From Candidatus Poribacteria bacterium (GTDB lineage: Bacteria > Poribacteria > WGA-4E > WGA-3G), in assembly GCA_022823085.1 (NCBI GenBank), contig JAJDXV010000070.1:4679-68678 (forward strand): a stretch of DNA of 64,000 nt, in the 5' to 3' direction. A program made the position numbers and the translations under genes. The notes beneath the pieces are model-generated. The model was given only the letters and a program-made list of their open reading frames with translations, ran no database searches and had not been told where the DNA came from. This document shows positions 26,908-27,026 of the stretch, in pieces. Position 1 is the stretch's first letter. The number at the start of each line of letters is the position of its first letter.

Positions 26908-27026
26908 AGGACTTACGCAATTTTGACTGTAGACTGTTCTGTTAGAAGAAAGTTTTCTGGAAACACGGCGTTTTTGCGTCACAATCTAACAGATTGTGGT
27001 ACAAAAGAGCATCATGCGTAAGTCCT
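26908..27026 (+). repeat. 119-nt TIR-bounded intergenic element (MITE / ERIC / Correia-like), copy A
   Basis: AGGACTTACGCA...TGCGTAAGTCCT termini. 97 percent identical to copy D. Ends 20 nt before the eno start. Confidence 0.85.

Follow-up and report, generated by a model that had tools for sequence, protein, structure and literature searches.

MITEs with ISPlag1-type ends and a covarying internal hairpin in Candidatus Poribacteria

The closest described counterpart of the repeats analysed here is ISPlag1 from Planktothrix agardhii, an insertion sequence (IS) of 1306 bp in the IS701 group that encodes a 337-aa transposase, carries the 29-bp terminal inverted repeat (TIR) CAGGACTTACGCAAGCACGCTATATATAG and also leaves 197-bp remnants in the same species (Christiansen et al. 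2008, PMC2464740). Among MITEs, Nezha is given, in the part of the literature consulted, as an element of 130-170 bp from Nostocales hosts with TIRs common to ISNpu3 (Zhou et al. 2008; reviewed in PMC3184786), and according to large surveys, cyanobacteria such as Okeania have highly diverse MITEs (PMC11602168). REP/BIME repeats, which go with RAYT transposases, are GTAG-tagged palindromes (PMC3733652). A literature search returned no paper linking Poribacteria with MITEs, and a full-text search for the tip sequence of the present element led to the Planktothrix paper alone.

In the window, by which we mean the whole 64,000-nucleotide stretch of a Candidatus Poribacteria contig that was analysed, a first-pass annotation had noted four copies of a short intergenic repeat whose sequence it did not recognise; the ends of this repeat are those of ISPlag1, an IS701-family element. 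We consider it highly probable that the repeats are a non-coding MITE of 121-122 bp that derives from a DDE-transposase IS and belongs to sponge-associated Poribacteria, that its IS701 (ISPlag1-type) ends allow it to be mobilised in trans, and that its hairpin is kept by compensation.

Ends, target sites and mobility

All four copies were confirmed on the + strand between the flanking genes that the first-pass annotation had named, and its description of them as TIR-bounded, intergenic and MITE-like is supported. Their locations stood, but their limits did not, as the true ends lie one base further out on each side. Copy A (26907-27027, + strand, 121 nt, ends CAGGACTTACGCA ... TGCGTAAGTCCTA) lies between ccmB (26121-26813) and eno, the enolase gene, and ends 20 nt before the TTG start codon of the latter at 27047; it is flanked by the direct repeat CTTCA (left 26902-26906, right 27028-27032). 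Copy B (36289-36410, + strand, 122 nt) is located between trpD (35207-36250) and trpC (36567-37343) and is flanked by TAATA (36284-36288 and 36411-36415). On the 3' side of trpC, and convergent with a 2-thiouracil desulfurase gene (37689-38126, minus strand), copy C (37520-37640, + strand, 121 nt) is flanked by TATAA (37515-37519 and 37641-37645) and represents a different subfamily, with a diverged left interior and the hairpin state GA/TC. Copy D (46256-46376, + strand, 121 nt), which has a mutated right end (GTGCT), is found between an RRXRR (IsrB-like, 376 aa) gene (45045-46175) and a CYTH gene (46371-46967) and is flanked by AAAAA (46251-46255 and 46377-46381). Across the family, element size ranges from 119 to 131 nt, which is too short for a transposase.

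These flanking repeats are perfect 5-bp target-site duplications (TSDs), present at all four window copies. The earlier conclusion that there was no consistent TSD arose because the ends had been set one base too far in. To define the ends, one genome per species was scanned for both tips 80-110 nt apart, yielding at least 118 loci, and direct repeats in the flanks were tested in every register and length. Among the matches listed, 92 of 130 elements have a perfect 5-bp TSD when the ends are extended by one base; other registers reach at most 16 of 130, save a 3-bp register that is nested inside the 5-bp TSD (98/130). A stricter recount of the elements with these ends, again among the matches listed, gave 89 of 126 with a perfect 5-bp TSD and 13 more that match at 4 of 5 positions. 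The structure of the element is Y-AGGACTTACGCA…TGCGTAAGTCCT-R, and its target sites are 80% A+T, compared with 51% for the window. The TIR comprises a 12-nt perfect repeat plus the Y/R outer base, with 98.6% of cells paired in 54 copies, a value that is biased because the search patterns required the tips. In the autonomous IS copies described below, the outermost bases are always C…G. Miniature elements among the matches listed carry TG (35), CA (34), TA (29) or CG (29) at these positions; the left-hand base, C or T, and the right-hand base, A or G, combine independently and at similar frequencies.

The 12-mer AGGACTTACGCA matches the window 19 times with up to two mismatches, against 4.0 matches expected, and none of 100 shuffles reached 19. 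Several further tip-like sequences were observed. At 13555-13623 (+ strand), a degenerate 69-nt relative with related ends (TAAGACTTACGTA ... TGCGTAAGTCTTG; AAGACTTACGTA…TGCGTAAGTCTT) has another interior and no TSD. A solo left tip, TAGGACTTACGCA, lies at 29382-29394 (+ strand) within 29382-29443, with no matching right tip and with a G+C-rich hairpin next to it at 29417-29440 (family D9); this hairpin recurs at 57873-57903, and the solo tip probably marks a truncated member of a different family sharing these ends. Within 41818-41895, a right tip with one mismatch is present at 41884-41895, and the stretch 41664-41894 is exchanged for other sequence in metagenome run X7.

The first-pass annotation had proposed looking for insertion polymorphism and empty sites, and both were found, showing mobility directly. 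The site of copy B is empty in four other metagenomes (runs X5, X7, X12 and X13), the contigs of which join 36283 to 36411; the 127 nt skipped correspond to the 122-nt element and one TSD, with 5 letters at the joint fitting either side. A target site that is empty in the window (TTTTT, 63323-63327) is filled at the orthologous position of a related Poribacteria contig, where a family copy (L060:1711-1832) is flanked by TTTTT/TTTTA. An exact-protein look-up of the enolase for empty sites of copy A returned no record. Another insertion/deletion polymorphism was seen near 30810, where contigs of runs X5 and X7 carry ~490 nt extra.

Parent insertion sequences and distribution of the ends

The 13-nt tips of the window element (CAGGACTTACGCA) are identical to those of ISPlag1, and at the right end of the MITE ~30 nt are similar to the 29-bp inverted repeat of this IS (…CTCTTTTGTAG vs …CTATATATAG). 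ISPlag1 copies on Planktothrix plasmids are all internally deleted, and the ORFs of these deleted copies led to the intact protein P0002, found among 6835 relatives at E<=1e-5. A full ISPlag1 copy that encodes P0002 and has CAGGACTTACGCA at both ends was recovered (L122:1327-2632). Against the NCBIfam model NF049921.1 'IS701 family transposase' (cut-off 250), P0002 scored 408 bits and P0013, a Tatlockia protein 77% identical to it, scored 405 bits, and there were Pfam DDE_5 and DDE_Tnp_1 matches as well. Five distinct autonomous IS of 1.2-1.4 kb carry the same 13 nt at both ends (from Planktothrix, Tatlockia, Cyanomargarita, Merismopedia and one metagenomic source); their transposases, of 335-339 aa, form one family, and both of the two that were scored pass the NCBIfam IS701 model. 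A perfect 5-bp TSD flanks three of five complete autonomous copies, namely those of Cyanomargarita (L195, TGTTT), Merismopedia (L197, CTGCC) and a metagenome (L198, TCTTA), while L122 and a metagenome copy with ISPlag1-like ends (L200) have none. The extended ends of the cyanobacterial IS (…AACTGTCACA, …AAGTGGCACA) recur in many small cyanobacterial elements, which ties the miniature and the autonomous forms together.

The first-pass annotation had suggested looking for a cognate transposase whose ends share the TIR; the five IS from elsewhere carry such ends, and none was found in the Poribacteria sequence searched. With P0002 as the tblastn query, no transposase homologue was detected, either in the window or among Poribacteria loci totalling ~0.6 Mb, and a search of the loci for a full-length IS between distant tip pairs returned only pairs of separate MITEs. 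Two high-copy JGI homologues of the transposase were looked up, and their samples were not sponge. From the recent insertions we infer that the element is mobilised in trans within Poribacteria. In the mechanism that we propose, an ISPlag1-type IS701-family transposase would recognise the invariant 13-bp tips (YAGGACTTACGCA) in trans, cut out or copy the element and insert it into A+T-rich DNA, with duplication of the 5-bp target.

The same tips bound many unrelated interiors. Candidatus Poribacteria have at least five families of this kind and cyanobacteria dozens, in Nostoc, Okeania, Microcoleus, Trichodesmium, Calothrix and other hosts. Additional hosts belong to Anaerolineales/Chloroflexota, Acidobacteriota, Bacteroidota, Gamma- and Deltaproteobacteria and Candidatus Moduliflexus, along with two Methanosarcina. 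A single 13-bp tip that is letter-identical across distant phyla and an archaeon is a marker for the horizontal spread of one IS701-family clade. A scan of viral contigs found just two that carry such elements, so phages are not an obvious main carrier.

For the window family itself, 54 distinct full-length copies were collected by profile searches over all loci together with a scan of metagenomes for its conserved right end (66 loci). All taxonomically labelled copies come from Candidatus Poribacteria, save one 'uncultured bacterium', and as far as labelled records show, the family is confined to sponge-associated members of this group. The window sequence was found in sponge, coral and marine metagenome runs, and two Poribacteria records share synteny with its 53-64 kb portion at 86-92%. 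Each of four runs has 183-470 contigs that map to the element, at which assembly contigs break, and the summed depth over the hairpin compared with the flank is ~390-740x in DNA and ~630x in RNA, a community-level measure rather than a per-genome copy number. These communities contain a very large number of copies of the family, which is divided into several subfamilies. For genome annotation, this explains recurring assembly breaks and intergenic repeats in Poribacteria genomes and supplies the exact boundaries, TSD and parent IS family of the repeat.

Covariation in the internal hairpin and its possible causes

The internal hairpin reads CACAATCT-aac-AGATTGTG in copy A (26980-26998, + strand), where it forms an 8-bp stem as DNA on either strand. 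Its arms are CACAAACT/AGTTTGTG in copies B (36363-36381) and D (46329-46347) and CACAGACT/AGTCTATG in copy C (37593-37611), which keeps the hairpin with one mismatch (C.A), as had been noted before. The compensatory pair previously described between copies A and D was also confirmed. In the coordinates used by the first-pass annotation, the two copies have three differences (26985, 26993 and 27024), the first two of which make up a T-A versus A-T stem pair, and copy A is the sole full-length copy in the 54-copy set with the T-A/A-T state. For three random substitutions, we estimate a probability of ~1e-3 that two of them fall in one of the eight stem pairs and leave it paired.

Covariation proved to be real when it was evaluated statistically on the 54 distinct copies, a check that the first-pass annotation had called for. 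Nowhere in the element is covariation between columns stronger than at the two inner stem positions, with columns 100-114 occupied by AU in 38 copies and GC in 14 (2 unpaired) and columns 101-113 by AU in 36, GC in 9, CG in 5 and UA in 1 (3 unpaired). Cells changed on both sides number 35, compared with 8.3 +/- 2.4 in shuffles (0/500 reach the observed count) and 0-13 in slid controls. Five fully paired states (AA/TT, AC/GT, GA/TC, GG/CC and AT/AT) are spread over 26 clusters that were defined by sequence outside the hairpin, and unpaired stem intermediates are singletons. We take these data to represent at least four independent compensated changes, the one between A and D being very recent. 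The five inner pairs are 96-99% paired, and the loop and the flanking outer pair vary freely. Each window copy folds better than its shuffles (z -2.9 to -5.2), with most of the fold energy coming from TIR pairing; the tip helix never covaries, and its conservation is uninformative because the tips were required by the search patterns, which inflate the conservation of both the tips and the right spacer. A candidate second conserved fold in the left interior was rejected, as per-sequence folds disagree and the RNAalifold stem 46-53/47-52 is an alignment-register artefact.

The hairpin sits just inside the right ~30-bp end that resembles the ISPlag1 inverted repeat, directly adjoining these 30 nt (TAGGACTTACGCATGCTGCTCTTTTGTAGC). 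We propose that it matters in cis for propagation of the element, such that only master copies with an intact stem would have founded subfamilies, and the stem may be part of the architecture bound by the transposase or a host factor, or may be extruded as a DNA hairpin. The compensated states mark subfamilies and not individual loci, which points to selection on transposition-competent master copies. Within the largest subfamily, departures from the consensus occur in 2/272 cells of the core stem versus 30/1003 of the left interior (p=0.046), a borderline indication that the stem is constrained after insertion. Five compensated stem states in related elements amount to a natural experiment on subterminal hairpins as cis-requirements of a little-studied transposase family.

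The hairpin is also a hotspot for structural change. In one family copy (L160, ~3214-3391, minus strand), at least six hairpin units GGGCACAGGCTAACAGCCTATGCTACAAA follow one another in tandem with a 29-nt period, and two loci (L178 and L157) have an insert of ~85 nt in the hairpin loop. Independent MITE copies contain, at one identical position of the hairpin 3' arm (…AGGTT^…^ATGC…) and without duplication, a conserved 32-nt module with two mini-hairpins, TGCGGCGTACTCGCCCAGATGCGACGTGCATC, which has the appearance of a very small insert that targets hairpins. It was located at L140:2156-2187, L132:3236-3267, L157:2233-2264 and L108:6902-6933, and in the window at 37441-37464 (minus strand) and, in part, at 42885-42901. 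Unrelated hairpins with a GTAG head have the same module as their 'loop', and the window contains one such hairpin between trpC and copy C. Loose contig ends at window position 26995/26996, seen in runs X7 and X13, suggest that the module has many further copies.

The principal competing explanation is that the MITE hairpin serves the host as co-transcribed RNA, as a 3'-end stabiliser, processing site or attenuator comparable to REP, ERIC or Correia sequences, which we regard as unlikely. The first-pass annotation had argued for selection as co-transcribed RNA from the co-orientation of the window copies with their flanking genes. Across 63 non-redundant family copies, however, orientation relative to co-directional neighbours, based on crude ORF-based gene calls, is the same in 11 cases and opposite in 14; the co-orientation in the window is therefore a coincidence, and this argument is not supported. 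Random orientation makes a strand-specific RNA function unlikely, and makes it more likely that the hairpin is kept for the element's own propagation than as strand-specific host RNA. As a palindrome folds in transcripts of either orientation, an orientation-independent RNA role (e.g. REP-like mRNA stabilisation) is compatible with this result. The four window copies do all occupy transcribed intergenic positions, and RNA contigs of metatranscriptome X3 cross both borders of the element, coming from ccmB on one side and continuing into the nearby eno on the other, in keeping with a host role, although these contigs are strandless and cannot show processing. The RNA/DNA depth ratio of the element resembles its DNA copy ratio, giving no RNA excess over DNA copy number in assembler contigs that are without strand and may contain DNA. 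The lower variability of the core stem in the largest subfamily would suit a host function, as would the strand difference in pairing. At columns 95-116, 28 of the 54 copies have C-G and the other 26 have C.A, and since C.A becomes a U.G wobble on the complementary strand, 392/432 core stem cells are paired on the + strand versus 420/432 on the complement; this difference is due mainly to a single column and favours a strand only weakly. Weighing further against a host RNA are the subfamily-wide distribution of the compensatory states, the lack of a promoter, a terminator or a terminator-like T run in a scan around copy A, and the Rfam results, with 0 matches in the window at gathering score and only chance-level matches on the element (E >5, searched to E 10).

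Alternatively, the compensatory changes could be a mutational by-product, in which intrastrand template switching in a quasi-palindrome copies one arm from the other; we find this rather doubtful. The stem is a near-perfect DNA palindrome that is prone to structural events (the tandem array in L160 and the nested inserts in the loop and 3' arm), and the two mirrored changes between the near-identical copies A and D fit a single templated event. Efficient arm-to-arm correction should, however, remove the C.A at columns 95-116, which stays uncorrected in 26 of 54 copies, and the free variation of the loop and outer pair next to the almost invariably paired inner positions also counts against template switching.

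A further reading, improbable in our estimation, extends the proposed cis role and would make the arrangement of tip, short spacer and hairpin a cis end module for IS701-family transposases, maybe extruded in vivo as ssDNA, and at the same time the landing site of a 32-nt micro-element. If this were true, the 32-nt module would be a minimal hairpin-targeting mobile element, to be compared with the small dispersed repeats of Nostoc or with a minimal IS200/IS605-like PATE.

That the repeats are instead genes of a multi-copy small structured RNA family is very improbable. Their better-than-shuffled folding and the covarying hairpin would fit such genes, but no Rfam family was matched at gathering score or E<1, promoter- and terminator-like sites are absent, the fold energy derives mostly from TIR pairing that never covaries, the left interior has no consistent fold, and the TSDs and empty sites show transposition.

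IS200/IS605 elements have no TIRs, make no target duplication and insert 3' of a fixed short motif. It is scarcely credible, then, that the repeats are PATEs of this type, moved as ssDNA by a Y1 HUH transposase and associated with the nearby IsrB (OMEGA) gene, since despite the hairpin, the shared orientation of the window copies and the location of copy D directly 3' of the RRXRR/IsrB-like gene, the other three copies are not near IsrB and the link is ruled out by the 13-bp TIRs, which equal DDE-type IS701-family ends, and by the variable, A+T-rich 5-bp TSD. The IsrB-like gene and ~100 nt before it (window 44900-46150) have increased depth in four metagenomes, with numerous variant contigs, indicating that this region is multi-copy in the community, and an Rfam search upstream of the gene gave no omega-RNA/HEARO match.

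Comparison with known repeat elements

Besides the tips and the right end, the window element has in common with ISPlag1 a palindrome near the tip and, with related autonomous copies, a 5-bp TSD. It differs in having no transposase, in its length (121 vs 1306 nt), in its unrelated interior and in its host phylum, Poribacteria. The ISPlag1 palindrome starts at position 15, whereas that of the MITE starts at about position 30, ~15 nt further in; other Poribacteria families with the same tips also have a palindrome near one tip, at differing distances. Given this offset, the hairpins of ISPlag1 and the MITE need not be homologous.

Among short palindromic repeats, REP/BIME sequences are similar to the element as short conserved intergenic hairpins, in which stem-keeping covariation is typical, but they are linked to Y1 transposases and are without TIR or TSD. 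Assignment to this class (a palindrome of 20-40 nt with a GTAG or CGTC head) was rejected for an element of 121 nt with TIR and TSD whose hairpin lacks a GTAG head. Separate hairpins with such a head are found elsewhere in the window (e.g. ~37418-37482), and these are a different repeat. Another short dispersed repeat, TGGGCTGCGCTCCACTACGTTCCGCGCAGGTTTCC…, is present at 11331-11376, 11461-11506 and 37347-37392, where it combines a palindrome with a CTAC motif and probably represents a family of REP type; 37330-37386 is a further region where metagenome contigs break.

Correia (NEMIS) and ERIC elements, which the first-pass annotation had considered the closest analogues, are functionally alike, as TIR-bounded intergenic repeats of ~100-150 bp that are co-transcribed and fold into hairpins, but they are not relatives. 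They have no sequence similarity to the window element and differ in parent IS family; Correia elements have a TA duplication and 26-bp TIRs cleaved by RNase III, in contrast to the 13-bp TIR and 5-bp TSD found here. Nezha and the cyanobacterial MITEs resemble the window element in their small size, IS-shared TIRs, direct repeats, predicted stable fold, A+T-rich sites and filled and empty sites, a likeness that for Nezha/ISNpu3 is drawn from descriptions in the literature. The general understanding of MITEs is unchanged by these results. In total, the element has every structural feature of a MITE that was tested, and its ends and TSD place it in the IS701 family as an ISPlag1-type element.
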